From assembly GCF_964355755.1 (NCBI RefSeq), contig NC_092677.1:14406101-14470100 (forward strand): 64,000 bases of DNA, in the 5' to 3' direction. This document shows positions 24,306 to 63,184 of the stretch, one piece after another. This DNA is from Antedon mediterranea (Eukaryota > Animalia > Echinodermata). The translations under genes were made by a program, and so were the position numbers. Under the pieces are notes generated by a model that searched no databases, had not been told where the DNA came from, and worked only from the letters and a program-made list of their open reading frames with translations. Positions within the stretch are counted from its first letter, which is position 1, and the number at the start of each line of letters is the position of its first letter.

Positions 24306-27300
24306 AGTGTGGTTTGGAAAATCCTGAAGAAAAACATTCATATTTTCGAAAATAATATTGAGAAGAATAGTAAGCCCTGGAATAAAGCATTTAACGAGTT
24401 TTAGTTGTTTAATTAGTGAATAAATTAAACTGTTAATCAAGTTATTCACTTTCGCAAAAAAAACTCTACGAAAATGACTTCACTTCTGAACGAGAGAATC
24501 AGAATAATGGACATTCGACTGACTTTTTTCCTTTAAATTACTTTTTATTCAAGTAAAATTGGCCTGTTAAACAACAATTTTTTTAGGGCGACAATACCAG
24601 TATATATTTAATCAACTCAAAGAAAATGCAAAACTTTACTCCCAACTTAGCTTTTGTCGGAATGATGATAAGAAACATATATTGTAAAACATAAGAATAA
24701 AATAAAGTTTCTACCTATATTAGTTATGGAGATACGTAAATCCTGTGAAAATTACATAAAATCCTTTAAAAATAAGTTCAAATTCAGCATTTCCGGTCAT
24801 TTTTGGACATAAGAAAGAATATAAACATATAAATTCTGAACAATTTAAAAAAAAACTCTCTATACATTAACTACCGGTTGGCGTTCTATGGGTACCCTAT
24901 GTTTTTACCCTTAATTTGCATATTTCAGCTATTTTGCATATGTTCCCAATGTGTAAACGAGGTGTGATTTGTGGAATTTCATCTCCACATCATGTGTGTT
25001 CAAAGCTTTGTTTGCAATTTGTTTGAATTTAAATTCTAGGTTGCCTAGACTATACCTACCTGATGCATAGAAAAATACTGTATATGTATATAGCGGCCAT
25101 TTGGGGTTTATGGACATTAACCTAATTTCTTCAACTACATTTGTTCTCAATTTATAATATGTTGTTCTGATAGGTCTTTAGAGATATTTACCACAAAAAT
25201 AAATTCTGTTCTAATTTTGTCTAGATAGACCCATTATTGTGGCTACATTGACTTGCATACTACTTTGTCTGACGGTGTAGCTACTGCTCTAGAAATTATA
25301 CCAGTGACTTTTTGTGTGCTTAGCGTCAGATCAGATATTGTTTTGTAGGTACGTTTACGCCTATAGCCAATCACTCATGCGTTAAACCCAATGAGTATTT
25401 GGATCAATCCTCTACTGTATCATGAATACTTACTTTCTTACCATAGCCAGTCTCCTCTCATTATTGGACCTTAATTCTGACTAAAATTCTGCCAGAACTC
25501 CACCCATTTTGTAAACAAATCGTCTGTAATTCCGTAAACTCATGGTGCACGGTATTCTATAACATGCGGTTTGGTAAAGCCCGACGACCCGTCATCCAAA
25601 ATTGATGCTTTGTACAAACAAACCAATTGTCAACCCTTATGACGTCATCCAAACACAATGAAATTTCGAACAATTGGAAATTGAGTGTTGCATTGAAATT
25701 GAAATTGTACGTTACACCCCCATACATACGTATAGAACTGAAACATAAATCTTAGCATATAGTTATAAAATAATAAAAGTGTCACAAAATCTAAACCTAT
25801 AGGCTATTCCATTTTTAAAAAACGAAATACATGTTAGTGAGTGAATCTCAGTGGGAATGAACATACGTCATATTCAAAAAGCTAAATCAAAATGATAAAG
25901 CAAAAGAGCCAGAAAAAACTTGCCAACTTATTTTCTTATTGAAAAGTAATAATCATTAGTTTCAAAACTGATATTTTCATCAGAAAGCCCAAATAAAATT
26001 CAAGTTTTATAAAATATTTATTTAAAAACAGTGATTAAAAAAAATATAAATGTTTTATTAACATTTTTATTATATTATTTTGTTCAATTATTTTGACACA
26101 AGTTTACAAGCATAAACAACAAAAAACCCACAATTATTCATCTATTCCTATAATTTTCTGTAGATATAATTTTTTATGGCGACATTAATATCATGTTGTA
26201 GGCCTAGAGTTTCAATTAAAGTTCACATACTTTTATGGATTATTATGCGTAAAAATAGTATGGTCCTCATTAGACGTACTCGACTGGGCTGATTTTTTTA
26301 GCAGATATGATCGGTATATCTAGCTGAAAATCCTCACTATTTGTAGCCCATGCGAGCAGTGGGAGTAGATAACTGCGAAGTTTTTGCTAGGCTAGGCTAG
26401 GTTAAGCTAGCGTGACCAGTCTAGTCAAATGCGCCTACCCATTCAGCATTACATGGTATGCCATGTGTATGCTGGTTAGAAATCACTTTTTGCTGACTTC
26501 AACGGCTTTGTTTTTAATGAAAAGTCCCACATGGTGAACACTCTTAAAGCGGTTTAATCCCAGGATATGAGGATTTTAAGCCACTGATGAGTGTCAACCC
26601 AGACTGTCTTTGTAAAAACCTTCACACTAAAAATTCTAAGAAGAATAGCCTCAAAAGAAGGGTAAAACAATCACATAAACAAGAATAAGTAGTACCATGG
26701 AAGATAATTGCCTAATTGTTTGTAAATTTATAATTTTCTAATCGGTCACTTGTAGTATGGAAGGCCAAAACACTTTTCGAATAATAGAAAGTAAAACCGT
26801 GTATGGAAATTATCAAACTTATTTATAAATTTACGTTTTTTAAAACCCTGTAAAATACTTGTTGTAAAAGTTCCATTGTAACTGAAATTTAATAGATCAT
26901 CGCCTTAATGCTTACGTCATTTTTACCCTGCAGATTATGGTGTTCAACTATATTCGGATAGAGATATTCCAGTGACCTCTATGATTCTTCCGAAAGAAAG
27001 TATCCACATTTAAGGTGGGAATAAGTATAAATAATATATATTTAGTTTGAAGATTAGGATAAATATAGATTTAATTGTTTATGTTTCATTCATACAAAGC
27101 ATTCCTAAAATGACAGCTTAATATTGTTCATTTACGTGTTCGGTTTGTTGTTTTTACGGTCTTGTATTCCATACAACTTAAGTAAGGTTAATAAGTGTGT
27201 AAAAAGCGTCTCTGATTTGTGTAACCGCAACGATGTGTAGGCCTCTAAAAACACTGCTGCTCTAAATAAAATAGTATTGTAAAACATTATATTGTTATTG

Positions 27301-37291: not shown

Positions 37292-38662
37292 TTATGATGT
37301 ATGCAACCTACTTGTTGAATTTCCATGGCGTTGGACATGCACATCATTAAGAAACATAAGGGATTTGTCAATTGTAGGAATCTGGAATACAAATTCATTG
37401 TCTAATTCGAGTCGTCCCATTGATTTATACAGATCATGTGACTTGGCAGAATCTGGAACTAAAGACGATGCCAGATTGGTAAAACGCGGGTCTTTTGCAG
37501 GGTTTAGTTGAGATACTGCTTCCTTCGTTGCCCGATTACGTAAAATAGCATTTCTGGAGACTGGTCTAGGTGTTAGTCCCTTTTCTTTTGTTTTCTTCAA
37601 TGCTATGAGCTGTGATATTATTGTTTTTGTCGTCCGTGATTCGCTTCTGGTGTTTAGTAATTCCGCATCTGGTTCGGTTTTTTTCGGGGTATCCACTCGA
37701 ATTCCATTTGATATATTATTTTTTTTATTTGTCTTTGAATTGCCTTTATTTTGTTCTCGAGATACTTTCAGAGATGAGTTATGATTGATATAATTGTCAT
37801 CCCACTCTGTATCAGAATTACATTCAATAGAGAAGTCATTTATCGAGTCATCTGTATTATCGGTACAAGAAAATTCAATTTTTGGAACGGGAATATGCTG
37901 AATTCTGTTTACACTTTCCTTTGATACAACGTTCTTTGGTTCAACATGTTTTCGCACAAAATGAGATTTTCCGTTTTCCGTTTTTCTGGATTTGTATTGA
38001 TAGCCGTTTACACCGTTTGCTAATGTTGTGACGTCATCTTGTAGCCGTGGATCCGGGTTACCTGCAATAAAACGAGTTACTTCAGCAACCTCGGGATCAA
38101 TTGGTTCTTTCTTTTCACATTTTAAAGGACTCATGTAATGTGGAATAGTTCTGCTCTTTCCATTTACGTTTTGAATTTTACTTTTTGTAACTTCGCTAGG
38201 CTTACTACTTTCACATTCATCCTCTTGTAGTTTAGCTAGTTGACGCTGAGCAAAGCCTCTTTTCTTCTGCATCATAAACTTACGTTTCTGCTCTTTCTGT
38301 CCGTCAATGCCTTCGTAGCTTCTCGAAAGTCGCCTACTTTCGTAATCATTTGATACTAAAATGCATTTTCCAACGGCGCTACTTTTTGTGTTCTCCGCCG
38401 TCATCCTACCTTTGTTACGATCCATAATAATTCTTCTTGTCGTAGGCCTAGCATCTTTAACGCTAACAGTGACATCAGACTCTGATATCTGTTTATTGGT
38501 TATACGCAGTGTTACATTACCTATTTTTGAAAGTCTTAATTTCTTTGCTATTGATATTGCCGTTTGTTTGTCTATGTACTTTGCCTCTGGTTCGTAGGCG
38601 GGTTGTTTCAACGTCGATGGCTTTTTAGTTTTACTTGGACTTAAATATGAATTAAGATTCAT
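37292..38662 (-). CDS. Uncharacterised 456-aa Lys/Ser/Asn-rich protein, single coding exon
   Basis: 1371-bp uninterrupted non-repetitive ORF in AT-rich DNA; candidate splice acceptor ~80 nt upstream of ATG (near 38743); no domain recognised. Confidence 0.75.
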   Translation of the reverse strand: MNLNSYLSPSKTKKPSTLKQPAYEPEAKYIDKQTAISIAKKLRLSKIGNVTLRITNKQISESDVTVSVKDARPTTRRIIMDRNKGRMTAENTKSSAVGKCILVSNDYESRRLSRSYEGIDGQKEQKRKFMMQKKRGFAQRQLAKLQEDECESSKPSEVTKSKIQNVNGKSRTIPHYMSPLKCEKKEPIDPEVAEVTRFIAGNPDPRLQDDVTTLANGVNGYQYKSRKTENGKSHFVRKHVEPKNVVSKESVNRIQHIPVPKIEFSCTDNTDDSINDFSIECNSDTEWDDNYINHNSSLKVSREQNKGNSKTNKKNNISNGIRVDTPKKTEPDAELLNTRSESRTTKTIISQLIALKKTKEKGLTPRPVSRNAILRNRATKEAVSQLNPAKDPRFTNLASSLVPDSAKSHDLYKSMGRLELDNEFVFQIPTIDKSLMFLNDVHVQRHGNSTSRLHTS

Positions 38663-38968
38663 GTCTATTTTGAATTTGCTGTATATTCAGTCACGCTTAG
38701 TATGGCCGTGCTTATCGGTATTTATTGATCGATTCACAATATCTAAATGAGGAGAACAAAAAATATATAATAATATTATTTTTCCGTAAATATATTCTGG
38801 TTAAGTTTTAGTTTAAAATTGTTTATGATGCAATATACGTGTTGTAAGAAGCGGGAACTAACTATTTTATAAAACTCATAGGCAGTATAAAACAATAATT
38901 TGAGTGTAATAGTTTTTAGCGTAACGTTAATAATTACGCATAACAAAATCAAACTATCATTTAAGTTT

Positions 38969-39126: not shown

Positions 39127-40296
39127 TTACACCATTATACTGTTTTCACATTACCTGATACTTTGACCCTTATCTAGTTAGTTTGAACTTGTAAGCTTAA
39201 TTGATGTGGGAGGTCGTGTTGCCAAGTAACCAATAATAGGCAGAGGATTTTACGACATGTAACTTTGACAGGTGTGCGCCGAATGTTTTATTTTGACTAT
39301 TATTAATTGTTACTGTGTTCATAATTATTATATTATACTATTAATAAAAAGAACAGAGCTTTTTGTCATCATCTTTGCTTTATACATATAGTCTACTAGT
39401 TAAGGAAGTAACGGTCTTTTCATCACTTTCTCGATTGCATGATTAGTCCAATGCCTATAAAAATAAACCTTTACAATGCTGTTGTTGCTACTAACACTAT
39501 ACGTACCTATATGCCTAATGTATACCTTTTTTTTATATCCTAATATATTTTATGACTAGTAATTCATTTACTTTATTCAGTAGTCGTTATTTTTATCTTA
39601 ATAATAACATTGAAGTCCTAAAAGATGCATTATTTCTAGCCACAAAACCGTAACTCACCAAAATTAGAATCCAAATAATAACTTCATAGAGTTAGTCTGG
39701 GTCCTCTATTATGCTTGCTATCCTCGGTGAGACTATTGTTGTCATTAAATTTACTCGTGGGACGCATCGAACAAATACTATTGAGCGGTGGTCTTGGTAA
39801 CCGCTTTGTCTTTATTGTGTACTGTGTGAATCTCTCGCCTGCTTTGCATGACAGTGGGGTATCTGATGTAAACAGTGTAGCTAAAAAGAGACTAGCTGTA
39901 AAGTACACCATGTAACGTATTTATATATTTTTACCTCAAAGAGTCTAGCTGCTGTGAACATGTGACGTTATTATATCATTTAACTAAAACGAGACTACTG
40001 TGGTCTGTGGCGGGCTTTGTTTATTAAATTGTTTCATATAAATTAAAAACATTAAACCATATCTGTATGATTAAACTTAGATCCCGTTGTCATTTTACGT
40101 TTTTTTTTTACGGTATATGCATATCTATTTTATTAATACTGCATTGATTGTATTCATTTCTCTGTGGTTATAAAATTGAGAAAAAATTGCGCTCTTTTTA
40201 TACAGGCGCTATGCTTGTGACGGTATATGAGGCAATATGAGAGACATAATAACTATTCTAAAATATTATAAGATGTTAATTTTTGATTTTTTTTTT

Positions 40297-41770: not shown

Positions 41771-44700
41771 TCAAGCTAGAAGGTCACCGATCCTTTGAAA
41801 AAAAGAAGGAACGGTTGATTGGTTGTCTTCCTCGTCATTCTCATCGTCTGATTCTGGAACATAATCAAGCTGGGCGTGCCCAACTATCCTCGTACGACGT
41901 TGGTATGCTTGTGTAGGTCTAGGCCTTATCTGTACACCAGCTTGCTTTAAACCTACGGATGTTAGCTTCTCTTGAAATTCAGTAACATTTTTGTTCCTGA
42001 TTTCCCGCTTCTTGACAATTTTTGACTTTTCTTTGCCGTTAATACTTCCATTTATCACGTCAAGCGAATCACCAAATTCAAGTACGGTATCAAAGATCTC
42101 ATCACATGTATCGACGCAGTTTGAAATAGCCCCCTCAACGTTGCGAAATAGTTCAATCATTTCATTCCTATCATGAGAAGTATAATTCCAATCAAATTTA
42201 AAATCGAATTTATAAATTACAAATTATTAATAGGTTAGGCTAAGCAATTTTCTGAAATCATGCCGTTTGTAGCTTTACAAAATAACCAAAACAATATTTT
42301 ATTTGTATTTACCTAAACTCGGTTACATCAGACCGTATATCAATGACGTCGGTCTGTGTTACGGCATCGTCTGTGTCAAAGGCAGACGACCGCTTGTCAG
42401 AAATGAAGCGGGCAACTAAATTATCCATTACTTCCTAGAAGCACAAACATATTGAAATGTTATGAAATCTATTTATTAATAATAATCAATGTTATGAATG
42501 TATGTAGTGTATATAAAATATCATACCTGATATTCCTGGTTCTTCTTCTTTATTTTGTCCTTGTATTTCTGTTGATAAATAGTTTATTTCTCAATATAGT
42601 GGTAAGATTGTATGTGTATATACTAGTAGAGGGACTATTAGATGGGTCACAGTTTGAGAGGTTTAGGTTGAGAGAAATTTACCCCAGTGGTTTTGCAGGG
42701 TGAAAATACATGTTGCAATGTTCGTCATGATAGTCTCGATTATACACGTCGACTTTACTTAATATTCGTATTGTAAAAAAACATTTTGGTACAAACGTTA
42801 TGTTTATACACATGGTCTTCTCAATGTTGTAAAGGTAATGGTACTTGCTTATAATTTTAAATGTTTAAACTAAAATGTAATAATGCATACCTTTTTCATC
42901 TCCTTCTCAGCCTTATGACAGAATGCTCTGTTTAAAATGCCTCTGCATAATTCAAATATATCTCTTGGAGGCGGAAGAATGTTAAATGGAATCGGGAGCG
43001 CGATTTGTTTGTTGAAATAAGAAATCCATATGGCTGATCGACTAAACTTCCATTCGATATCAGAATTATCCTATAAAACAAATATCATAAGTTCGAAATG
43101 GCGTTATGAATTACCGTAGTTTAAAACAGAGACTAAGAATGGTATTTTATAGGCCTATTGGCCAAATATAATTTTGCCAAGTATTATTACTTGCTTTGTT
43201 TGTATAAGCACGATAGCGCCTACAATGTTGAAGTTATCATTCTGAAATTCTCAAAATGTATGTGTACATAGGTATATACATACATGCCTATTATTGATAT
43301 ATTGGTCACGTCACAAAAGCTTATTATATTAAAATTTCACTTTCCTGTATCGTCCATATGAGATATAGCACGCCCTCTGTATTCTTTTAACATTAATATC
43401 AAGTGGTGAGCCTTCTATCTCCGAATATAGGTTTCCCTAATATATTAACTACTTCACTAAGTTTGTGAGTGCTTTCACGTTATCACAGCACATCATTTAA
43501 CTGTAGTATTACATATTTGTTCCCACTTGGAAGCAATCCAATAGTAGGCGCAATGGGAACCAAACCTTAATCCGTGACCGCTGTCAGCATATTGGTAAAC
43601 TCTCATTCTCGCTCTGTCGGATAGAATGTTGTACATGATTTTTAAAGGCCAATTTACACGAGCGGTAAGAGTAAGCGGTAAACGGGGAAAATAGAGAATC
43701 CGGTATGTTATGACGGAGTGGACGGGTGGTTGAGCTAAAACCCGTCCAAGATAGACTCCGTATTCTATGGGACACGCTACGCGCTTTTTCGTTTACCGTT
43801 ACCAATTATCTGTAAAATGGCCTTAATGTCTTTATAACCTTAGCGTGCGAATATTTGTTTACCTGTATTTGACTGAAAGTGTTACTCATCATGGCTATAA
43901 GTACATTAAGCAGAATGATAACTGCCATCACAATATACACTGCGTACATAAGTGTACCCACACCTTCCGTTATGGAATGATCTGTACCTGTATCTAAAAT
44001 GCCTAGGTCGCCTAATCCAACCAGTCCCCAAAATAAGGTTTCCATCCCTTCTGCAAAGCTAAGAACAGTTGTTACTATGTTATTCATTATTATTACAGTA
44101 TCACAAATTAGTGGATAGCTTATAATTACTAGTATGTTTGTTATTATAACTTGTCACGTTTTAACAAAATGTGTAGAATTTTAAATTGTACAAGAAAATT
44201 TATCAGAAATATATACGGGGAATCCCTGCAGTGGCAGTAGCAGAAGCAGTCGTAGAAGCAGCCGAGCAATAGTAGTAGTAGGCGCAGTGGTAGCAGCAGT
44301 GGTAGCAGCAGTAGTAGCATCATTCGCATTAGCAGCCACATTAGCAGCCGCATTATCAGCAGTATTATCAGCAGTATTGGCAGAAGTAGCATTAGCAGTA
44401 GCCACAACAGTAGCTGAATCAGTAGGTACAGCAGCAGCAGCAAACGTAGAAGTAACATAAGAAGTAGTAGTGATAGTGTTATAAATAAGCAGAATCTATG
44501 GAAGAAGTATTTTAGTAACCTTAATAGTATAGTTAAAACAATTACCCGGCAAATGGATTTTGGAAACATCCTGTTTGCTCGCCTCCATCTTCAATGCATT
44601 TTAGAATTGTAGCTGAGGCATATGGGTAATAAAGCTGTGTCATACCCATTGCAAACGCCCACCATATGACGATGAAAATAACCATGAATCTGGCAATATC

Positions 44701-47700
44701 CGAAGTCATTCTCTCTAATGATATCTCGAGAGGACCTATGGAACGACTACTAGTAATCAGCTGCAGAAGTCTAAGAAAACTGCAGATATTACCAATAGCA
44801 AATGCAGCTTCGGCAATCAGGTTAGGGTCATCATTTTTCCATTCACGTCTGCTTAGGAAAAAACTATAGCTTGAGAAATATTGAGATATAAAATCAAATT
44901 CTTCACTATTAAAAGAGTAAGAATTTTCTGATGAACTGGTATAATCACTTAAATTTCGAATTTCAATTGTATCTGTAACCTCCAGATAACCACTTTGGAA
45001 TTCCGATGTCAGTAAACTGTCAATTGTCTCTTTTAGTTTGCCGTCGTCCACTGATTGTCCACCGCAGTCACTTATAAGAAGCCGTAAAGTCTGAATCGCG
45101 AGTTGGTATTCCTCAGACTGATCGCAGGTTTTGCTGTCGTTTTTCAAAACAGTTCCATTGCCGTATGCAACGTAACGACCATTTTCGTATAGATAACAAT
45201 CTTTGCCGTTGTAGTTATAATAACCGCCATCGATTACACACTGATTTAATTCACAGACTCTTCTTTCGAGATTTACTAAACAACATGCAAACAAACTTCC
45301 ATACAGTATGTAGTTATTGTAGCAGCTTGGTATTTCACGACATACCTCTCCATCCCATGCTGTATTATCAGCACACAATGTGGCATCTGATACGTCAGTC
45401 CATGTATAAGTAGTACTATTGAAATACCGCTGTACACATTTTTCTCCATCAAATGTTGAGCCATCATTGCACTGCCTGTAAGATAATGTATCGGTAAAAT
45501 GTATAGGTATTGGTTAGTTTCACGCTTTACATAATATAAAACATAAACAAAATGATACCGTTTACCTATTCAAACAATCGCCGTAAAAGCTTAAATCGGG
45601 ATCACAGCATATACTGAATTCATGATGTGTGTAGTAGGCTGCATAGCACGGTGGACCATGTTCAAAGAAATTGCATCTTTCCTGATTGGCAACATATATA
45701 TCGCCTTCTCGTTGTATCTGAAATTTAATTTTAAAATATACATAAACATTATTTATTCGTTGTCCGTAAAAGCCGGAACTTGTATTTGTAATTTGATGAT
45801 GAATTTAAAACGAGAGCATTAAACAAAGGAGCATTATAAAAACCAGAAGAAAAGGTATGTTCTAAAATTGCTGCTAAATATACAGTATTTAGCATTGTGT
45901 GATATTTTTGTTACTTACAATCCAAAATAAAGTTAGAGCACTCATTACACTGTAAATGAGAACAGTTTTTAATTTTTACCTCAAAGTATGCAGCAACTTT
46001 TAATAAAATCCACACTGAATAAAGAAGAATTTGCGCCGTCTCTATAAGGTTCCATTTGTCTTTCATGTACTTTTTAAACCCACATTCCCATATTTGTTTG
46101 CTTTCCTGTACTGTCATTCCTAAATGCAATGGGCAGTTTACAGTATTTTTTATTATTTCGTTCATAAGATTGATAAGATGTTTATTACATTACAATTACA
46201 TTGTAATTACATTGTAGTTATAGTACAATTGCATTGTAATTATAGTACAATTGCATTACAATTACAATTAAAATGACATTTAAAAAGTCACCGTGCAATT
46301 ACATTACATGTACAATTACATTACAGGTACAATTACATTCCAATAACATTGTAATTACATTATAATTAAATTACAAATTGTATTAAATTACATAAACAAC
46401 TACATTACAGGTACAATTACATTACAATAACATTGTAATAACATTGTAATTACAATTACATTACAATTAAATTACAGTGACATTCCAAGTCACAGTACAA
46501 TTAAATTACAATTACATTGTATTTACATTATTATTAGCATTACAATGCAATGTTACATCAAAATATGAAATACATTACTAACCTATGACCCAAATGTATA
46601 ACACGATTGATGTTACAGAAGGTAACCTGCCTCGTTCTCTGTCGTAGAACTGTTCTATTTCGAGTTGTTCTGCCTTTGTAAACGAGAAGTTGGTTGCAGG
46701 CGCTGGGTCCTGGTTATATAATGTGCTTATAATCAGTAAAGAAAGAAACGTAAAGTACGAAAATGTTTCAAATAAGAATCTCACATGTCTGAAAGGCAAT
46801 TAAAACAATATGATTATTATTATTTTGAGATAGTCTTAAAATTTAAACAAATTAAATTATAGTTATTTTGGAAAAAGTTACGAAAACAATAAATATCACT
46901 AACGGTGTATGGACAAATTTCTTAATCCATCCAAACGGAAATAACAGGTATAATACAGAAAATATCGGAAAGCTGCATCCAATGAGTATACTTCCAACAG
47001 CATCACGTGCTACTGAGTAATCTCGCCAACCAATAGGTAGTCCTTCGTACCAACGTTTTGTCATTATTAGTTGGCTGTTGGGGTGTGCAACAAACTGAAA
47101 GACATGTAAATGATAAGCTTATAATGAATACACCTATGTTTATACGTCCTTTCACAAATGATTTCATAAATTGAAAACGTAAACTTTGATCTCACCGCTT
47201 TCTGTTTGTGTTCAATCGCCCTTTCTAGTTTCAGCAATTGGTTGTCAGAGACTGTTGTGTAGTCTTCTCCCCAGACTTTCAAATCGTGCGTCAAGACAGT
47301 TTCGAGTTCATTCGATCCACGTAACTGGTCAAGAAGACTACAACAGAAATTTGAAACCTGTAAATAACGATATGCAAGGCTATAATATTCATTTATTATC
47401 GAACATTAAGTTATTACCATTAATGTCATTACAATGTCAACGTGAACATAGAAACAGTGCAGACCTCGACCAAATTGGTCACCTAGAGGTGTGTGATGAG
47501 TGCAGCAGGTCACCTAGAGGTGTGTGATGAGTGCAGCAGGTCACCTAGAGGTGTATGATGAGTGCAGCAGCTGCTTACCTGATTCTTAAGTTCTTCATAC
47601 TCGGCTCTAAATTCATACTCCCTGTCTTGAAGTTTCTCTAGACGACGGCAGATGGAAAATGCTGCGTCTATGGGATCTTTACTAGTGAGAGCAATGTAGA

Positions 47701-50700
47701 ATTCACCAGAAAGTGCTTTATATATGTGGAGAATGCCAATAGAGTATTCCACTGTGTGGCACTCGTTTGGATCTTCCTGAACACCAGGATCATCAATAAG
47801 ATGCGCTCCATTCAGCAACAATGCCTGCAGTAAAATAATGTGATTAAGCTCTGTCTACACTATCAAATGTCCTTTTATGTTTTATATTAGGCATGTATTC
47901 AAAATTGTAGATAGAAATTATTCCTAAATAAAATATAATATGCTAATTTCAATACAGGTATGATCGACACGAAACAATCTCTTTTATGGACGAATTTGAA
48001 GAATTACCCATCAAGCTACAACGAGGTAAGTTAAGTTAACTTTACAATTTACAAATTTAATTAACATCTGTCTAATCTACATAAACAAATTTGCAATATC
48101 TTGAATATTCATGAGCAGTAAATCGACATATGTTAGAATAATAATCACCATTTGTATTATTGGTTGTTGCTGTTTTGCTATATATATTGTCAGTAAATCT
48201 TTTGGAATTATCTATCAGTACATTATATAATAGACGGTAAGTAAAACTTGTTTATTTGGTTCGTTTGTGACACCTCTGCAGTGAACTAGAAATTTGTTAC
48301 GAATGTCCCGCATGAGATTTTATTTTTCGTACATTAGTTGGGGAAATATCGCGGCCCGCATGGTATTGTCACTACATTTACATAAATAGACTACAGTAGA
48401 CACTTTTATCTCACATTTAATTGGATCAATTTGAATGAGTACCAATCCTATATCTATATAGATTAGAAATAGTGGGCCTACAGTATTCGAAAAATGACTT
48501 TTACTGCCCGCTGGATGTTTGCGGCCTCCTTTCATCAATATATGATGCGTGTGTTAAATTAATTTGCAATCCAACATTAATTTCAGACTATTTAAGCTTG
48601 TTTATAATAATAGGCCTACCTGGATTACGTTATTGATTATTCATCAATGTTCACGTAGAATACGTTGCAATGTTTAGAAATAGAATATTTTATAGATGGT
48701 GTAACTTACCCTGATTATATCGTGGTTATTGTTCTGGGCAGCTAAAACTAGAGGAGTAACAACCGGGTGAAAGTCGTCTGAATCCATACCAGAATTAATT
48801 ATGTTGTATTGTTTACCCTAGAATAAAATAAAATAATAACTTCTGTTGTGTAGCTTTAATCTTCTCGGATAAGGGCTATAAACTGTAGGTTCAGTTGTAC
48901 ACATCTAGTTCATGTGCACTTTAAAGAACCTAGTACATCTTTCTAGACGAGTAGGTGGTTACCCCGGTGTACTAGTACAAACACATCCACTGGTCATAGC
49001 TGGACCCTTTGGTCTTTGAATGAAGAGGTTACCCGGTATAAATACATAACCAATTCAAATTCAAAGATGAGAAGCCGTCGTATATTATATATAAGAGGAT
49101 ATTCACAATATGTGAAAAGGAATGAACAAAAACAGACACAAAATGCAGTTTTTTAAAAATACATATTGAAACACAATGATGATTCTGATTAAAGATGTAT
49201 TGTCCCTTTGACAAATTCCAAAAAGAATAAAAAATAAAGATTTCGAAACAAATGGGTCATTTTGAAGTATCTTAATAGTTATTAACTTTCACCAATTATT
49301 AGTAAAAAAAGAATCATTTAACTGAAATACAGACGTTTTTTGTTTAAAAAAATTACTTTGACTTCTAGTCAATGTTCTCGATCAAAACATATCTCATAAT
49401 GCAACGCGCTTGTTTGGCTACTCTGTATGCATAATCATAAAACTTCCTCGCGATCTGTGTGAAAACACCTTCTCAACCGTGACGAGTTGTAAACAATCCT
49501 AATTAGCATCATGCATAATGCATACTCGTGGTTTGAAATCTCTGTTTACTTTCGATCGCGACGATTTTCCAGACGAAATGTAATCAAATTAATTTACCTG
49601 TTCATTACGTAAAATTGTTGTTTTTGGCTCGATTTTCCGACTTAAATTGAATAACTTTAATATTACTTTGATATGGCCAATTTAAATTTAGAATATTTTG
49701 ACCTTCATTTTTTTTGTGTTTCAAGGGACAATACATCTTTAAATAATGAAGAATTTAAATAAATGAGTTTATCTCACAAAAGAAAAAAATCCTATTGACA
49801 ACATGATAGACCGCTTAATAATCTTTTTTTTTTCTTAGTTAGTATGCATAGATATTCTATAAACATTTTCAACTACAAAAAGACAGCTATATATGTTTTA
49901 TTCGTTGGCTATTTGAAATGTATGTAAACCAAAATTGTTTTATTCGTTGGCTATTTGAAATGTATGTAAACCAAAATTGTATTATCCAATATACTTTTTG
50001 TCGGAAAATTGACAAACTAGCTTTTTTCTTATATGGACAATCCATAAACAATGTATAAGCACATACTTCAAGAATTTATAAATAGGATAACACAAACAGG
50101 TTTTTTAATCAGATAAAACCGTTTCTTTGATACCTGTGTCGACTTTGCAAAGTTCAAAATGATATCAACCGTCTTCATGTTCTGCATGTCAATCGCCCTC
50201 AGTAGAGAGTCGCCTGGATGAATACCGCCATCTAACATCAGTTTGATTACCTCTTTATAAATAAACAATAATTTTCGTATTATTGAGTTATTCTGAATTT
50301 GAAGTAGCAAATTAATTTTATTTAAAGTGGTTTGTTTTAAACAATTTAACATTCATTTTGTTCATAATTACAAATCAATAGGTATGCTGGGCTTATTGTG
50401 CAATTGGGACTGGACAGTGCACGTTAAAGAACTTGGTACAATAATCGTAAAGAGTAAGGGTATCGTCTCCCGGTGTGCTGATCTGTTAGGCGCTGCACTG
50501 TTGGCTGCCGTGGGTCCGTGGAGGGCCTAATCCGAATTTCCTCAGTTTCCCGTTAAGCTTGAGAACCAGAATGATACATTTCATTTTCAAAGCTGCATGA
50601 ACAAAAAATTCAAACGAAACACAGTCTATTTATGTCAGTTAGTAAACAATTCTTATGCTACGATTGAAAGTTTACCACCATAAATTTAAGTGCCACTGAA

Positions 50701-51523
50701 CATAATTTAAGACGATACTGAGAACGTACCAATTAGCCATATTATCCCATCTCATTTATATTAATAGCGAAACCAACGCAGTTGAAAATCTTATCCCAAA
50801 AACAAGATTACGTAATCTCATCTAAGCCTACCTGCAACTATTATCAGTGAATATATATAATTCATTAGCCCTAATGGACATTTTCCTACCTGCATTTGAA
50901 TTCTTTACCGCAAGTTGAAGCGCAGTATCGCCGTTCTTATCTCGGCAGCTGACATCGAAGGACTCCTGGTGCAGTAACGCATATGAGACTGCTTCTATGT
51001 CTCCCTTTTCTGCTGCCCGCAAAAAAACCTCTTCGAGGGTACCGTCAGTTGGCATTTCTTGTTCATTTTCTTTCTTATGCGTTTTATAGGATATACGCCT
51101 CAACGTATGTAATTGAATGTCTTTACTATAATGGGAACTATAATTGGAACTATTTTAAATTAACAGTATAAATGTTGAATTAAAAATGCACAAAAATACG
51201 AGTTATATTAGGACTTCATTTACCTCACCACTAAATCATTAAATTATGAATCTTAAATGTTTTTAATATACTATAATTATGATATCATTAATATTATTCA
51301 TTTTTTTAACATATATTAGGCCTATACATATTTCGTTTCATACTTATACTCTCCCAATCCCACTTGCATGACTTCGGTGTATGATATACATGTCACCTAC
51401 GTAGGCTACAGTTTAAAATATCATATTGATATAATTCAATTTTAATGTAATTTTTAAAATACCGATAATGATGATACATTATGAGTAAACTTACCTTTGG
51501 CCCTTTCGATTATATTCAGTCAT
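41771..51523 (-). CDS. TRPC-like (canonical transient receptor potential) cation channel, ~1142 aa
   Basis: 16 phase-compatible GT-AG exons: 51523-51495, 51098-50890, 50252-50134, 48817-48710, 47824-47579, 47357-47196, 47094-46904, 46788-46583, 46119-45980, 45717-45566, 45475-44546, 44058-43863, 43070-42891, 42568-42527, 42434-42313, 42167-41771 (3429 nt). Ankyrin repeats (FLRAAEKGD; TPLVLAAQNNNHDII); YKALS...DPIDAAF; KAFVAHPNSQ; S4-S5 linker IGPLEISLERMTSDIARF; pore TLFW; S6 LLNVLIAMMSNTF; TRP box EWKFSR; LPIPFNILP. Confidence 0.93.
44228..44480. repeat. Intronic degenerate (CAG/TAG)n trinucleotide tract
   Basis: agcagtagtagcagc arrays; source of ORFs 44144..44569 and 44181..44405. Confidence 0.9.
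46184..46560. repeat. Intronic (ATTACA)n-like microsatellite with inverted tgtaat blocks
   Basis: attaca / caatta / tgtaat repeats. Confidence 0.85.
47477..47569. repeat. 31-bp tandem repeat x3 next to a TRPC splice donor
   Basis: ggtcacctagaggtgtgtgatgagtgcagca at 47477, 47508 and 47539. Confidence 0.9.
48855..49030 (+). mobile_element. Deu/Nin-domain SINE fragment
   Basis: ggataagggctataaactgtagg...gtgcactttaaagaacc...gagtaggtggttaccccggtgt; related copy at 50385-50580. Confidence 0.6.
49193..49738. mobile_element. Kolobok-like non-autonomous element (546 bp)
   Basis: TTAA TSD; TIR agatgtattgtccctt / aagggacaatacatct. Confidence 0.8.
50385..50590 (+). mobile_element. Deu/Nin-domain SINE 3' fragment
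   Basis: gtgcacgttaaagaac...aagagtaaggg...cccggtgtgctg; ends in catttcatttt tail. Confidence 0.55.
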
Positions 51524-56400: not shown

Positions 56401-59400
56401 CACATTAATAGGTAGATTATTCCATAACTTAGTAGGTCCAATGGCAGAAAATGTTTTATCACCAAATAGTCTACTAGTTTTAGAAACAACAAGAAGAGTA
56501 ATATATATATATAGTAATATAATAATATAGGGCGTTGTGATTTCACTTAACCAAGGTATAGTTTTTTACAGCTCCTGAAATATAGTTAAAATTTGACGTT
56601 TTCTAAATCTCGATTGATTTCTAAGTGAGTATAATACAGTGAATAAGTCAAGTTAAACCAAGTCTTTGTTAAGGTGGAAGTTTTTACCTGAAAGAAATAC
56701 TAGGAAAAAACAATTTGTATATCGTTCACGTCTAAGCCCGGTGAAAGCCAAACAATGGCGTCAAAAACCCATAGAAACGGGACTAACAAAGGAATGTACA
56801 GTGCTGCACAGGCTGACGGTGACGAAATCAGCAGGATGAACGGGCAAACAGTAAACAAAGAACGTAGTGTAGTGAAGCCAATCTTTTTGAAGGCTGATCA
56901 AATACCAACAGGAAAAAGCTTTTTCAAAGATGAAGACCTATGTATAGCCCTACTAAAAATAATTGCTGCAGAAAGTATAATCGGTGTTCAAAAAATACGG
57001 AACCTATGGCGAATTTATCTAAATAATAGAAATGATAGAGTGAAACTAATTACGAATGGACTAAACATTAGGAATTGTAATATTACAATTCATGATAAAA
57101 ATCCTTATTTGGCATACAACAACATGGAAACAACGAGAATAGTCATAAAGGATATACCATTATCGGTTGCTGACGTAGAGATTGCTAGCAAGTTGAAAGC
57201 GCTAGGATGCAAACCAATAGGAGATGTTACAAGGCTAAAAATAAGGGTTAATGGTCAATTAACCAGCTGGCTAAACGGTGACAGAGCTGTCGTTGTAGAA
57301 AAGCTAAAATCGCAAATACCAAGACAGATAATAATAAATGGTTTTAGAGCACGGGCTTTTCATGACGGTCAGGAAGTGAAATGCAACAAATGTACAAAGA
57401 CTGGGCATTTAGCTTTTCAATGCAAAGCTGATATAATCTGTTTCAAGTGTCATTTACCAGGGCATACTAGGGACAGATGTAATGTTGAAGCGCATAATGT
57501 ATCATCATCTGGTTCACCTGGTGCATACATTAATAAAGTTTGGGAATCGGTTTTTAACTTTGAAAACCCAAAAAATAATAATGCTAACGATAACCACTAC
57601 GGGAAAAGAGCTACGGTACAATCTGATACAGAAACACATGATGAAGTGTTTAGTATTGATGGAAGTAGTGAATCATCAGATGATGAAAATGCGCAGAAAG
57701 AAACAAGTGTGATCACTATAGAACAACACACAAACCAAAATGAGCAGGAAGATGATGACAGAGAGGAGCAGAGGGAAGAGCAGGAAGTGGACGAAAGAGA
57801 GGAGGAGGAAGTTGAAGAAGGAGAGGAACAAGAAGTACCGGGAAGAAAGTACCAGAAAGCTGAAGAAAGAGAGGAGCAGGAAGTTGGGGAAAGAGAGGAG
57901 CATGAACAGAAGAAGGTAACTGACTACTTTGAAAAAAGTATGCAAAAAAGTAAAAGTGTTAGCACAAACAAGAAAGCAGCGAGAGATCTGAAGGAACAGT
58001 CCGGAAATGAAGGCAGGACAGAAGAAAAAACAAAGAGTATTGAAAAAAGAAGTTTAAGAAAGAGAAACAAAAACAAGTAATTTAATCTTAATAATATGTA
58101 TTCTAAATATTGTAATTTCCCTAGGAAGCTCTTTACTCTAATCTTATGAATTTACATTGTATAACACTAAACGTTAGAGGAGCTAGAAATATAAATAAGC
58201 AACATAAGCTATTCCAATGGGTAAAAGATCAAAAAGCGGATATATGTCTGCTTCAGGAAACCCATCTAACAAATGAGATTATTAATAAATCAAACTTTGT
58301 TTGGGAAGGTGAAGCGATCCATAGTATAGGTAATTCACATAGTAGAGGAGTGTCGATACTATTACGAAAAGGTCTTGAATGCAAAATTGTTAAAAAGTTA
58401 ACTGATATTGATGGAAGATATATATTTCTTAATCTAATGATAAATGAAAAGGAATTGGACATTATAAATATTTATGCTCCTAATGAAAGCAAAAATAGAA
58501 GTGCATTCTTTAGGACCATACACAAATGTTACAATGACTTTGATGGAGGGAAGGGTAATTCTATCATTCTAGGTGGAGATCTGAATTGCATCATGAATAG
58601 TGACATTGACCAAAAAGGTAGCGCAAATAGGTCTGATAAATCTGTTTTTACGATTAAAAACCTAATGAAAAATTTAAATTTAAATGATATTTGGAGATCC
58701 AAAAACATGAATAAGCGACAATTTACGTGGCGTAAGAGATTTAACAACATTTTCCGTAGGCTGGATTACTGGTTAATATCAGAAGATCTCTTTTTAAATG
58801 GAGATGTTTTAGCCTGTGACATTCGTCCAGCTATTCTCACAGATCACCAGGCGGTATCAATTAAAATAGATTTGCATGAAAAAAAACGCGGTCCTGGTTT
58901 ATGGATGTTCAACAATAGCTTTCTGAAAGATGAAACATTTACAAAATTAGTAATTAAAATAATTGATGTTTCAATACTAAAAAATAATAGAGAACCTGTA
59001 AGTGCAAGTTTGTTATGGGAGCTTGTAAAAACAAAAATAAAAGAATTTTCAATTGCATACGGAAAACAAAAAAATAAAAACCAGAATAAAAAGAAAGAAA
59101 AATTACAAAAACAAATAAAAAACTTAAATGAAACAATTATGAATACTCAAAATTGTGATATAACCATTGAAAATAAAATTGAAAACAAAAAAATAGAGCT
59201 TGAAAACATTTATAATGTAGAAGCAAAAGGCGCGCAAATTAGGTCCAGAGTAAAATGGATAGAGGAAGGCGAGTGGAATACAAAATACTTTCTTGGGTTA
59301 GAAAGATCCAAAAGTAAAAAGAAACACATAAAAAGTTTAATTACTAAAGATGGGAGCTTAGCAACGAGCCCAATTGATATTTTAAAGGAACAAATACAAC

Positions 59401-62400
59401 ATTTCGAAGGTTTATACGCAAAAAATGTTATAAACCCTGGAAAAATTAATAAATACCTTTGTAATTCTATTATAAACAAGCTTTCAGAAATAGAAAAAGA
59501 AAATTGTGAAGGTTACGTCACTATTGATGAATGTAAAAAGGCCATTTCAATGATGGAAAAAAATAAAACACCTGGATCGGATGGTCTAAGTGTTGAATTT
59601 TATGTGTTCTTTTGGAATAATATTAAACATTTAATTTGCGATGCGTTAAATGAAAGTTATAATTCTCAAGAATTATCCTTTTCGCAAAAACGAGGTGTAA
59701 TCACCCTTTTGTTCAAGGATGGAGAAAGAGAAAATTTGAATAATTGGCGTCCCATTACCCTATTAAACACCGATTACAAAATTCTTGCACATGTATTAAG
59801 TAACAGACTTAAAATGGTTATTAAATCAATAGTAAGTTCAGACCAAAAAGGTTATATAAAAGGCCGTTTCGCTGGTGAAAACATTCGGTTAATAGAAGAC
59901 CTGCTTTATTATACAGAGTGTAATGATATCGAAGGGGCAATAATTACCGTAGATTTTAAGAAGGCTTTTGACTCTATTAGTAGAGATTTTATGTTCAATG
60001 TTCTAGAAAAGTTTAACTTTGGAATGTTCTTTTGTAACTGGGTAAAAGTATTATACAATAACGTTGAATGTGTCACAGTTAACAATGGTTGGGTTTCAAA
60101 CAATTTAAAAATGGAAAGAGGTATTAGACAAGGTTGTCCTCTATCTGCTCTGTTATTTATTTTAGTGGTTGAAGTAATGGCATCTAGAATAAGAAACAAA
60201 GATGACTATAAGGGTATTAAACTTCCAAATAATGAAAATAACATAGAAGCTAGAATAAGCCAATTAGCCGATGATACTGTTTTGTATGTTGGTAATGACA
60301 AAAGTATTAAACCAGCAGTCAGTGTAATTGAACGTTTTTGTGAAGTATCTGGAATGACACTAAATAAAAAAAAAACCAATGCTTTTTGGATTGGTAAATG
60401 GAAGAACAGAATAGATAGACCTTTAGAATTAAATTGGGTAAAACACCCGATCAAAATTTTAGGCATATATGTAGGGTATAATACAGAAGAATGTACCAGA
60501 AAAAACTGGGATGTTAAATTAATAGAGCTAGAAAAGACTTTAAAACAATGGAATGCTAGAAATCTCTCAATTTTTGGTAGAATAATAATCCTGAAAAGTC
60601 TTGCACTATCTAAATTAACATATGCTGCAAATATCACTGATGTTCCAAAATATGTATATACACAAGTTACAAATCTAATATATAATTTTATTTGGAACAA
60701 TAAAAGGGAAAAGATAAAAAGAAAAACTCTAATTGGTGATGTTGAGATGGGAGGCATTCAAATTCCTGATTTTACTCTTCATGTTAACGCAATCATGTGT
60801 GGCTGGTTAAAAAGAATTATGAATGATGATGGTGCTAAATGGAAAAATATTCCAATGTATTATATTAAAAAAATATGTGATGTTAATGTTTTACTTAATA
60901 TGTCATGTTATAACATTATTGATGTTAATTCTGATAAAATTCCACTGTTTTACAAAAATATGATAAAAGCCTACATAAATTATAACAGAATCTCTAAAAA
61001 AAACCCTGAAACTTATAACGATATAATGAATGAGCAACTGTGGGGAAACCACTACGTTAAACTAAAAAAAAAACGCTTTTCTACAAGCATTGGATTGACA
61101 GTGGCATTATCAGTATTAAAGACATTGTTAATAAGAACACTTTTTTAACATCGAACGAAATACTGGTGAAACTACAATGTAAAACAAACTGGTTAAATGA
61201 GTATTTGTGCATTATTAAGGCAATACCAATTCAATGGAAACGTATTATTAAGGAGGTAGATATTTTCAATTGTGATGATAATGATGAAGTAGTTGGGACT
61301 AAGTATGAGATTAATACTACCAAACTAATATACTCATGGTTTGTGAAAGAATATTTCATTATTCCAATGTCACAACTAAAATGGGAAGAGTACTTCAATG
61401 ATAACAACATTGATTGGAAAACTTCTTGGTTACGGAAAGTATGTAAAATGAAAGATAAGAAACTAGCACAATTCAATTATAAGATGTTACATAGAATACT
61501 GCCTACCAACAAACGGCTGTATCAGTGGAAAGTTAAGGAAACACAAACGTGTGACAAATGTGGAGAAATTGAAAATGAAAATCATTTGTTTTTTAGTTGT
61601 AGATTTATTCAGAAATATTGGAGGAAAATGCTTAGTATCTTTGTGAGTTTAAATCACAATAATATATCATTTAAACAATTAATACTAGGAACGGGAGATA
61701 AGCTAATAGATTATATTTACACTTTTGCAGCATTTACTATTTATAGAATAAAAATGTTATCTGCACTAAATAAGCCAGTGGGTAAATCTTTATGGAATTC
61801 ATTTAAAAGCAATATGTTATATAACATTGAATGTGAAACATATAACAATAAAGAAACAAGTATAGAAAAATGGGTAGCTTTAAGAAATAAGATTATGATA
61901 ATATAAATTCTAACTTGATACGATTAACCGAAAAGGAATTACAGTAATACGGGTTACTGGTGGTACTGAGCTATTATTGTTTTTTTTTTTTATCATGTAT
62001 ATAAATATATTGTATAATCCGGGTTGTAAAATGAAAACAAACAAATGAAAATGTGTGAACTATTTTAAAACGGGATAGATGATAATGATGATCCTGTCAA
62101 GTGTATAACAAAATATAAGAAAATTAATGAAAAAAGGAGTAATACAGAATTCATATATGTAAAAATGTTACTTATGAACTGTAACGACATTTACAAGTTA
62201 AATAATACGATTTTATGTAATATGAGATAATATGAATGTGAATAAAAGTGGTGTTTGCGCCACAAAAGAGAAGAAAAAAAAAAGAAGAGTAATATCTTGT
62301 GTGGATCTGAGTCCCTGGCGAACAGGGTTATACTTCTGAATTAGTTCCTGTAAATAGACGGGTGCTTAACCATTGATGCAGTTTGTATATGATAATAATA

Positions 62401-63184
62401 TATTGTTTATTACTTTCCCCCTCGATTTTTAGGAGTCACGCTATACTTCTATGATGGAAGAGGAGGTAGATCAAGATACCCTTCGTCAACTGTACTTAAA
62501 GGGAGCCGAAAGTGGTGATCTGGATGCTGTGGAATTCGCTCTTTCTCATTGTGACTTTGATAAAAACTGTACAAACCCAGATGGTAAAAATGCACTAGCA
62601 GTGGCAATTAAATCAAACAACATAGGTAAATAGGTGATATATTTTGAAATGTTTCAAACCTTTCTCTAAGTTCTTGCATAAATTGTTATATTGTGTAGAT
62701 CAATTAATGATAATTTAATGCAAATAAACGACAAATTAAGGTATATTCCGCTTTTAATAATTTCACGGTACTGCCATTTTCTATATTATGAATTAAAATT
62801 CTCTATTCCAAGATGAGCGTCCACCACCCAAATGAAGGGTCATTTGCCTCGACAGCCCCGTTCAACTTTTTTGTTTGTGATTGTCGAAAGATTGAAAATA
62901 AAAATAAATAAATAAAATAAGTATCCGAGTAATTACCGATACAATTTTTAAAATTTGTTTAAACTAAACATTCCTCTGAAAGCTCATCTCTTAAATTATA
63001 AAGGTGGTAAAAATGTTTATTTTGTCAACAATGGTTTCTAAAATCAATCCCCTAATTCTTTTCAGAAATAGTAAAAGTTCTTTTACAAAACGATGTGAAC
63101 GTTGGGGACGCACTCTTGCGAGCGGTGGATATGCAGAACGTTAAAGTAGTTGACATTTTACTCGAATATGCTCGATCACCACAG
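53500..63184 (+). CDS. Second TRPC-like channel, 5' part only (continues beyond the window)
   Basis: Exons 53500-53544 (MSKKGTSNSKKKSKR, less certain), 62433-62625 (YLKGAESGDLDAV...NPDGKNALAVAIKSNN), 63066-63184 (IVKVLLQNDVNVGDALLRAVDMQNVKVVDILL). Phases are compatible, and the 119-bp exon equals exon 3 of the minus-strand paralog. Confidence 0.85.
54290..54725. repeat. (AAGT/AAGC)n tetranucleotide microsatellite
   Basis: aagtaagcaagtaagt arrays; source of ORFs 54248..54802 and 54444..54734. Confidence 0.92.
56755..58080 (+). CDS. LINE ORF1p, gag-like with two CCHC zinc knuckles and an acidic tail
   Basis: CNKCTKTGHLAFQC and CFKCHLPGHTRDRC; Glu-rich C-terminus. Confidence 0.9.
   Translation: MASKTHRNGTNKGMYSAAQADGDEISRMNGQTVNKERSVVKPIFLKADQIPTGKSFFKDEDLCIALLKIIAAESIIGVQKIRNLWRIYLNNRNDRVKLITNGLNIRNCNITIHDKNPYLAYNNMETTRIVIKDIPLSVADVEIASKLKALGCKPIGDVTRLKIRVNGQLTSWLNGDRAVVVEKLKSQIPRQIIINGFRARAFHDGQEVKCNKCTKTGHLAFQCKADIICFKCHLPGHTRDRCNVEAHNVSSSGSPGAYINKVWESVFNFENPKNNNANDNHYGKRATVQSDTETHDEVFSIDGSSESSDDENAQKETSVITIEQHTNQNEQEDDDREEQREEQEVDEREEEEVEEGEEQEVPGRKYQKAEEREEQEVGEREEHEQKKVTDYFEKSMQKSKSVSTNKKAARDLKEQSGNEGRTEEKTKSIEKRSLRKRNKNK
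58146..61906 (+). CDS. LINE ORF2p (APE endonuclease + reverse transcriptase + zinc finger), one frameshift at A10 61064-61073
   Basis: TLNVRG, LQETH, GGDLN, RLDYW, TDH (APE); KTPGSDGL, NWRPITLLNTDYKI, DFKKAFD, RGIRQGCPLS, QLADD (RT); CDKCGEIENENHLFFSC in the shifted frame. One extra A fuses 58146..61148 with 61166..61906 into 1253 aa. Confidence 0.92.

Follow-up and report, generated by a model that had tools for sequence, protein, structure and literature searches.

A gene on the reverse strand of a chromosome of the crinoid Antedon mediterranea encodes a product that is, by its sequence, a TRPC channel with an intact core. It carries in its S3-S4 loop an insert of 259 residues, which is real, conserved and apparently undescribed, and is probably an undescribed disulfide-rich module. 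The gene was analysed within a stretch of 64,000 nucleotides (contig NC_092677.1, positions 14,406,101 to 14,470,100), here called the window, and all positions below are counted from its first letter. A reading made from the letters of the window, here called the sequence-only reading, had proposed the insert as the best candidate for an undescribed system. That description was too broad: the protein belongs to a known channel family, of which it is a variant, and the outer domain of TRPC3/6 and two crinoid loops of 92 and 97 residues precede it.

Gene structure and channel core

The gene and the parts of its channel core were located as follows.

41771..51055, (-): TRPC gene, 15 coding exons giving a 1118-aa model, 14 of 14 introns GT-AG; a translated search with XP_033109974.1 aligns over nearly the whole length
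50890..51055, (-): exon 1, first ankyrin repeats (Pfam Ank_4, E 6.9e-7)
47579..47824, (-): exon 4, TRP_2 domain (Pfam PF08344, E 1.9e-10, exceeding the gathering score)
45980..46119, (-): exon 8, end of S2 to S3, with a phase-0 donor at 45980 (matches TRP-gamma 424-466 and TRPC5 418-458)
44546..44850, (-): pre-S4 motif, S4, S5 and pore turret with two Cys at aa 790 and 800 (TRPC5 466-546, E 1.3e-18; Ion_trans, E 7e-5)
43863..44058, (-): pore helix with LFW motif and S6 (gene model and alignment)
42891..43070, (-): TRP box EWKFSR and TRP helix (alignment)

The hallmarks of TRPC channels were present in the Antedon model: N-terminal ankyrin repeats, a TRP_2 domain following them, the LFW motif and a TRP box that differs by one change from the EWKFAR type and is common to this model and XP_033109974.1. 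A six-helix ion-transport domain was supported by hydropathy and alignment. When the S4-S5 segment was compared with the sequences of the PDB, the top 33 of 48 rows were TRPC or TRP-gamma proteins, with E-values down to 1.3e-18, and TRPM8 first appeared at 6e-4. The TRPC identity given in the sequence-only reading was thus borne out by the ankyrins, TRP_2, LFW, the TRP box and the PDB matches. A quick tree of 11 rows, which included no TRPC3/6/7 and carried a long-branch warning, placed the Antedon protein as sister to XP_033109974.1 (support 100) and this pair outside TRPC4/5 and spider TRP. To judge from its family, the protein has probably stayed a cation channel of four subunits that is controlled by lipid/PLC.

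A cysteine-rich insert between S3 and S4

The insert comprises aa 447-705 of the model (genomic 45717..44851) and is encoded by exon 9 and the 5' part (45475-44851) of exon 10; this exon (45475-44546, (-)) joins exon 9 in frame with canonical GT-AG sites. It contains 17 Cys and has sequons at aa 516, 603, 609 and 671. The 259 residues, 17 Cys and four sequons that the sequence-only reading had assigned to the S3-S4 region at 45717..44851 match the gene model exactly. The insert was divided into the following parts, of which repeat A begins in exon 9.

45566..45717, (-), 152 nt: exon 9, which opens the insert with 50 aa that hold the degenerate hairpin and the core of repeat A, and ends in a phase-2 donor (50% identity to XP_033109974.1 454-503, pairwise E 1e-16)
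45418..45717, (-): repeat A, aa 447-516, 7 Cys, split by a 90-nt intron at 45565-45476 (gene model and repeat alignment)
45172..45384, (-): repeat B, aa 528-598, 8 Cys, a hairpin, a predicted helix and predicted beta hairpins (repeat alignment; AlphaFold2 mean pLDDT 67)
45001..45132, (-): predicted two-helix module, aa 612-655, 2 Cys (AlphaFold2; 47% identity to XP_033109974.1 over aa 601-660)
44851..45000, (-): Ser-rich stalk leading to S4, carrying phase-2 AG sites (44% identity to XP_033109974.1 over aa 661-705)

Since the flanking sequences match residues 418-458 (end of S3) and 466-546 (pre-S4, S4 and S5) of TRPC5 in solved structures, the insert belongs to the S3-S4 loop. In TRPC5 the same flanks are separated by about 7 residues, compared with the 259 of the Antedon insert. 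The highest 19-residue hydropathy within the insert was 1.14, so that no extra membrane helix is apparent, and the standard topology of TRP channels would place the insert outside the cell. The exon-10 part of the insert (624 nt) was free of stop codons, while none of 20,000 shuffles was. Together with the retention of 17 of 17 Cys in a second species, this argues that the insert is not a chance open frame.

The conserved Cys and the sequons suggest that the insert would carry disulfides and glycans. As the number of Cys is odd, one would be left over, either as a free thiol or to form a bond between chains; this spare Cys may lie in repeat A, near aa 461. Aromatic residues make up 39 of the 259 positions, a richness that may resemble that of many binding surfaces.

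The orthologue in Anneissia japonica

The S4-S5 query returned a single protein among 57 candidates, XP_033109974.1 from the crinoid Anneissia japonica, which is automatically annotated as 'short transient receptor potential channel 4-like' and which we regard as the orthologue. Its insert has 261 aa and 17 Cys, with 51% identity to the Antedon insert and 17 of 17 Cys aligned. Sequons occupy exactly aligned columns at positions 516/523 and 603/610 (Antedon/Anneissia). The model uses the long form, with exons 9 and 10 joined as in the Antedon model. Identity between the two species was 75-78% in the core, 51% in the insert, 55-57% in the repeats and 44% in the stalk, and 66% overall over 851 columns. 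The insert is therefore conserved but evolves faster than the core.

The ankyrin region of XP_033109974.1 matched Ank_2 (E 1e-12). Against the NCBIfam model TIGR00870 it scored 400.9 bits (E 9e-120) compared with a cut-off of 498.75, the scored sequence being one without proper S1-S3. Residues of about 375-453 (S1-S3) of this protein appear to be mis-predicted, with 16% identity to the Antedon protein compared with 75-78% in the flanking core. Within Antedon, among the differences listed for other sequencing runs, 5 of 6 insert substitutions were synonymous and one indel added 3 nt; single contigs of low depth may contain errors.

Internal repeats and predicted structure

A four-way alignment of repeats A and B from both species gave a repeat unit of ~70 aa that consists of a hairpin, a PxC..CC..C core and a second hairpin, with the first hairpin of repeat A without its first Cys. 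When the A and B repeats were shuffled, the observed score was reached in 22 of 2000 shuffles for Antedon, 0 of 2000 for Anneissia, and 1 and 109 of 2000 for the two cross-species comparisons; with Cys positions fixed, the corresponding counts were 142, 22, 23 and 350 per 2000. As the repeats beat the shuffles in most but not all comparisons, the duplication is old and much of its signal lies in the spacing of the Cys. The sequences thus give modest support to two ~70-aa repeats, in a duplication that appears real but weak. The duplication of a 6-Cys module that had been proposed earlier stands in this form, with a longer unit of hairpin, core and hairpin, and the hairpin that had been set apart as a third one belongs to repeat B, as the first of its two.

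The same reading had described an acidic Ser-rich stalk. A Ser-rich stalk is present, but its acidity is not conserved, as the last 45 aa of the insert contain 8 D/E and 1 K/R in Antedon and 7 D/E and 6 K/R in Anneissia.

The structure of the insert was modelled with AlphaFold2. For the whole Anneissia insert, with an alignment of three rows, the model had a pLDDT of 38.8 and was unreliable, and repeat A was left without a confident model. Repeat B together with the following segment reached a mean pLDDT of 67 and a pTM of 0.45 (five models, 49-67). The predicted structure showed a helix over the core and beta hairpins, followed by two helices.

Transcript data and splice sites

One sequencing run had the character of RNA, a status that was guessed. 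One of its contigs skipped 145 nt at 42166-42312 with CT..AC ends, which is exactly intron 14 of the model, so that transcription and splicing of the gene seem to occur. Contigs of the run covered much of the insert at a depth of 3.4-5.8, some of them extending into introns 9 and 10, and the insert junctions 45980/45717 and 45566/45475 were not seen among them. The run contains unspliced intron sequence and does not cover exons 5-7 or 11.

All five AG sites listed close to S4, from 44905 to 44848, are of phase 2, while the S3 donor at 45980 is of phase 0, so that a splice from this donor to an AG near S4 would shift the frame. A splice from 45980 to an acceptor near 44860 that skips the Cys region, against which the sequence-only reading had set its claim, would accordingly be out of frame, and no phase-0 acceptor near S4 was found among the AG sites listed. 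The five phase-2 sites had 9-12 pyrimidines in the 15 upstream bases and the 14 true acceptors had 8-12. As the donor of exon 9 is also of phase 2, exon 9 could join the sites at 44905-44848 in frame. Such a splice would drop about 190-208 aa and leave a short loop. This in-frame short route, from the exon-9 donor to the same AG sites, had been missed in the sequence-only reading. No such joint was listed in the RNA-like run, in which one contig was unbroken across 44851 with ~230 nt on the insert side.

Homology and fold searches

The earlier description of the insert as unrecognised held, as no described domain matched it in Pfam, NCBIfam or the PDB sequences. In Pfam, with E-value limits of 1 or 10, neither the five pieces taken from the insert alone nor the insert region of XP_033109974.1 matched a family, no NCBIfam family matched the insert and the repeat profile had 0 matches among PDB sequences. 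The hairpin of the insert presumably resembles EGF-like and chitin-binding type 2 modules; no profile of these or of other small disulfide modules matched the insert pieces.

A phmmer search of 1.84 billion cluster representatives with the insert gave 2 matches, of which only XP_033109974.1 (E 9e-61) was credible; in such a set, any relatives within 50% identity of XP_033109974.1 would hide behind its entry. A SCO-spondin-like protein with TSP1 repeats, whose phmmer E-value of 9e-9 was the sum of 12 stretches, was rejected, its likeness being to repeat B only and its E-value with the repeat profile being 8.5. An assignment of the insert to the thrombospondin type 1 repeat was also rejected: the insert pieces had no Pfam match, while the SCO-spondin-like protein scored E 5e-102 for TSP_1. 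A match to a giant-virus contig was rejected, as it fell within an open frame resembling an RNA polymerase beta subunit and the Anneissia insert did not match this contig, and matches to RNA polymerase II in the PDB (E 0.15) were attributed to chance.

No further copy of the repeat was found when its profile was run against the six frames of the window and 62 proteins (2837 records). Scans of metagenomes and of prokaryote genomes produced 201 and 76 pattern matches, none of which was confirmed. The ESM Atlas gave no usable match to the insert and one unnamed cluster at 0.75. A word-index search with the insert gave no match, but it also missed XP_033109974.1, which makes this negative uninformative.

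With the two AlphaFold2 models, one of low and one of moderate confidence, Foldseek found nothing that reached E 0.001. The best VIA-align scores were Z 6.0 (rmsd 4.2, 59 aligned) and Z 5.9 (rmsd 4.5, 69 aligned), both generic helical matches. With models of low to moderate confidence, the absence of a fold match is not a demonstration of a new fold. In the open-access literature that was searched, neither papers on XP_033109974.1 or on any TRPC carrying an insert of this kind nor studies of crinoid TRPCs were listed.

Comparison with other TRP channels

The length of the S3-S4 loop was compared in an alignment of 61 rows, from which the SCO-spondin-like protein and the entry P0061 were left out; the comparison set consisted mostly of fish TRPC4/5 and included no TRPC from a non-crinoid echinoderm, a gap that is no proof of absence. 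Between the S3 and pre-S4 anchors, 15 residues were counted in 54 of the 61 rows, nearly all of them fish TRPC4/5 and so not independent, 23 in a spider TRP and none in two rows. The two proteins with the insert had 268 and 270. Two other crinoid TRPCs, P0058 of A. japonica and P0059 of Antedon mediterranea, had S3-S4 loops of 92 and 97 residues. These two proteins were 75% identical to each other, had one Cys per loop and formed a separate branch of the tree. Their loops did not resemble the insert significantly (pairwise E 0.048). To judge from these sequences, crinoid TRPCs seem prone to growth of the S3-S4 loop, with shorter loops that are unrelated in sequence to the insert.

The closest likeness of the core was to vertebrate TRPC4/TRPC5 and insect TRP-gamma, which gave the best PDB matches on both flanks of the insert and have in common with the Antedon protein the LFW motif, the TRP box and the turret Cys pair. 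The protein differs from TRPC4/5 in the spacing of this pair, 5 residues there and 10 in the Antedon protein, and in its TRP box, EWKFSR. The TRPC3/TRPC6 extracellular domain, which we take to be small and built of a long S3 helix with short loops, lies at the same place as the insert, the S3/S3-S4 linker, and has no sequence match to it. In the passages of two papers that concern this domain no Cys-rich repeats are reported (PMC5967863, PMC7054860). In TRPC3, as described in part of the first of these, the long S3 and the S3-S4 linker make up an extracellular domain whose cavity receives a tyrosine of the pore loop, and this domain is proposed to be a sensor (PMC5967863). A passage of the second, a 2020 review, repeats that the extracellular domain of TRPC3/6 is formed from S3 and the S3-S4 loop and may have a sensing role (PMC7054860). 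Zebrafish TRPC4, in the words of one paper, 'does not have extracellular' domains (PMC5951680).

Large outer domains are described in the same review as confined to TRPP/TRPML at S1-S2, absent from the other TRP subfamilies and possibly able to sense ligand or force (PMC7054860). An excerpt of another paper describes these polycystin and mucolipin domains as locking the subunits together and as static in solved structures (PMC5864754). Like them, the insert would be a large, glycosylated extracellular domain that interrupts a TRP channel between two of its membrane helices. They differ from it in lying at S1-S2 and in being an alpha/beta sandwich, whereas the S1-S2 loop of the Antedon protein has about 30 aa and its insert is at S3-S4. 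This position rules out the insert as a polycystin-mucolipin domain, and the polycystin-mucolipin fold was not listed in the fold searches of the low- and moderate-confidence insert models.

Genomic surroundings

The start of a second TRPC gene, consisting of two ankyrin exons, was found at 62454-63184 (+), head to head with the insert-bearing gene. It matched Ank_2 (E 2.6e-4) and had 56% identity to residues 88-128 of XP_033109974.1; only the first two ankyrin exons lie within the window. Open frames of 458, 1007 and 281 aa between the two TRPC genes (56704-61906, (+)) resemble what we take to be a LINE-type ORF1 and an interrupted ORF2. High-copy repeats, whose summed contig depth greatly exceeds that of single-copy sequence, occupy 48707-49807 and 50175-50908 within introns 1-3. 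Downstream of the insert-bearing gene, a Lys/Ser-rich open frame of 464 codons lies at 37292-38686 (-); another open frame, of 78 codons and with a hydrophobic start that resembles a signal peptide, lies at 39684-39920 (-); neither had a Pfam match. Exons at 4264-4761 and 21938-24479 (-) contain sialylmotif-like sequence and presumably belong to two ST8Sia-type sialyltransferase genes.

Possible function of the insert

Our tentative preference is for the insert as a disulfide-bonded, glycosylated ectodomain that would bind a partner outside the cell and allosterically bias gating, as an enlarged analogue of the TRPC3/6 domain; we consider this a real possibility, though short of probable. Folded on the outer side of the membrane, such a domain may bind a candidate extracellular partner. 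Binding would shift S3-S4, and the channel would then open more or less readily. Coupling to the pore turret may be expected by analogy with the TRPC3/6 extracellular domain. Modulation of a channel activated by PLC and lipid is judged more likely than direct gating by a ligand. The receptor-like fold and the ligand-gated or tethered channel of the sequence-only reading accordingly stay candidates. The allosteric binding module is favoured because the insert is at the site of the TRPC3/6 domain and is larger, presumably locked by Cys and rich in aromatic residues. It also agrees with the retention of 17 of 17 Cys, with the better conservation of the repeats than of the stalk, with the two sequons at matching columns, with the mostly synonymous substitutions listed and with the defined secondary structure predicted for repeat B and the helical module. 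As no ligand-binding family or fold was recognised, the argument for binding is one of analogy throughout. A big ectodomain need not be a sensor either, since the S1-S2 domains of TRPP/TRPML are described as static in solved structures. Further points against this reading are the faster evolution of the insert than of the core, its junctions unseen in the RNA-like data, the possible short isoform and the aberrant S1-S3 region of the Anneissia model.

Several other explanations were weighed against the allosteric binding module. The insert could be a static structural cap that serves folding, the choice of tetramer or partner subunits, delivery to the surface, or shielding of the outer pore and the voltage-sensor-like domain from toxins and blockers, and that sends no signal to the gate. 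The polycystin and mucolipin domains, which a part of the literature describes as static locks between subunits, offer a precedent for such a cap (PMC5864754). The odd number of Cys would permit an inter-subunit disulfide, and conservation of the insert is concentrated on its Cys. However, the insert hangs on S3-S4, which is the mobile side of the S1-S4 bundle, and tandem repeats carried by a stalk suggest a module that projects outward rather than a lid; we find the cap somewhat doubtful. Cys-rich repeats on a stalk would also suit an anchor, and the insert might be a tether to the matrix or to a neighbouring cell through which force pulls S3-S4 and opens the channel, so that the protein would sense touch or pressure. 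When two TRPCs were knocked down in the sea cucumber Holothuria leucospilota, the pressure-evoked expulsion of the Cuvierian organ was reduced (PMC10120082). This would bear on the tether if those TRPCs were orthologues of the crinoid protein or carried the insert; the four supplements of that paper mention neither Anneissia nor XP_033109974.1. With no known matrix-binding module found in the insert, and the TSP1 match spurious, a tether seems quite unlikely. Unlikely as well, if a little less so, is a bolder scheme in which the TRPC is its own receptor, with a tandem-repeat ectodomain of new fold that would bind a peptide, a protein or matrix and open the channel directly without GPCR-PLC, possibly switched by the alternative acceptors.

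The remaining explanations concern the Cys and the exons. A redox or metal sensor, in which the spare Cys or a labile disulfide reports the extracellular thiol or metal status much as the turret disulfide does in TRPC4/5, would fit the odd Cys count conserved in both species. Passages of two papers describe potentiation of TRPC4/5 by reduction of the outer-pore disulfide (PMC7054860, PMC5951680). This channel already has a turret Cys pair, however, and 259 residues far exceed the needs of a thiol switch, which makes such a sensor highly improbable. The insert might be an optional, alternatively spliced module, with a short-loop isoform produced by joining exon 9 to an AG before S4 and a long form that may be a minor product or restricted to some tissues. 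The phase-2 donor of exon 9 and the five AG sites of the same phase, which have the pyrimidine counts of true acceptors, would allow it, but the candidate AGs are part of Ser and Arg codons in a coding stretch that is conserved, and the Anneissia model uses the long form. The unbroken RNA-like contig across 44851, with no such joint listed, also speaks against it, in a run that holds unspliced intron as well. We regard optional splicing as very unlikely. That the segment is an intron or a nested, unrelated open frame outside the channel is scarcely credible: although its two junctions were not observed in the RNA-like data, it forms one open frame continuous with S4 of a kind that no shuffle reproduced, it is conserved in a second species, and the S3 donor has no phase-0 acceptor listed near S4.

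The protein is a candidate sensory channel in crinoids, with an insert known from two species and from sequence alone. If this TRPC were its own receptor, the insert would represent a third independent way for TRP channels to gain a large ectodomain. Whether the ectodomains of TRPP/TRPML or TRPC3/6 gate the pore is left open in the relevant part of the 2020 review (PMC7054860), and a natural TRPC with a conserved 259-aa module at S3-S4 would provide a clean test of ectodomain gating.
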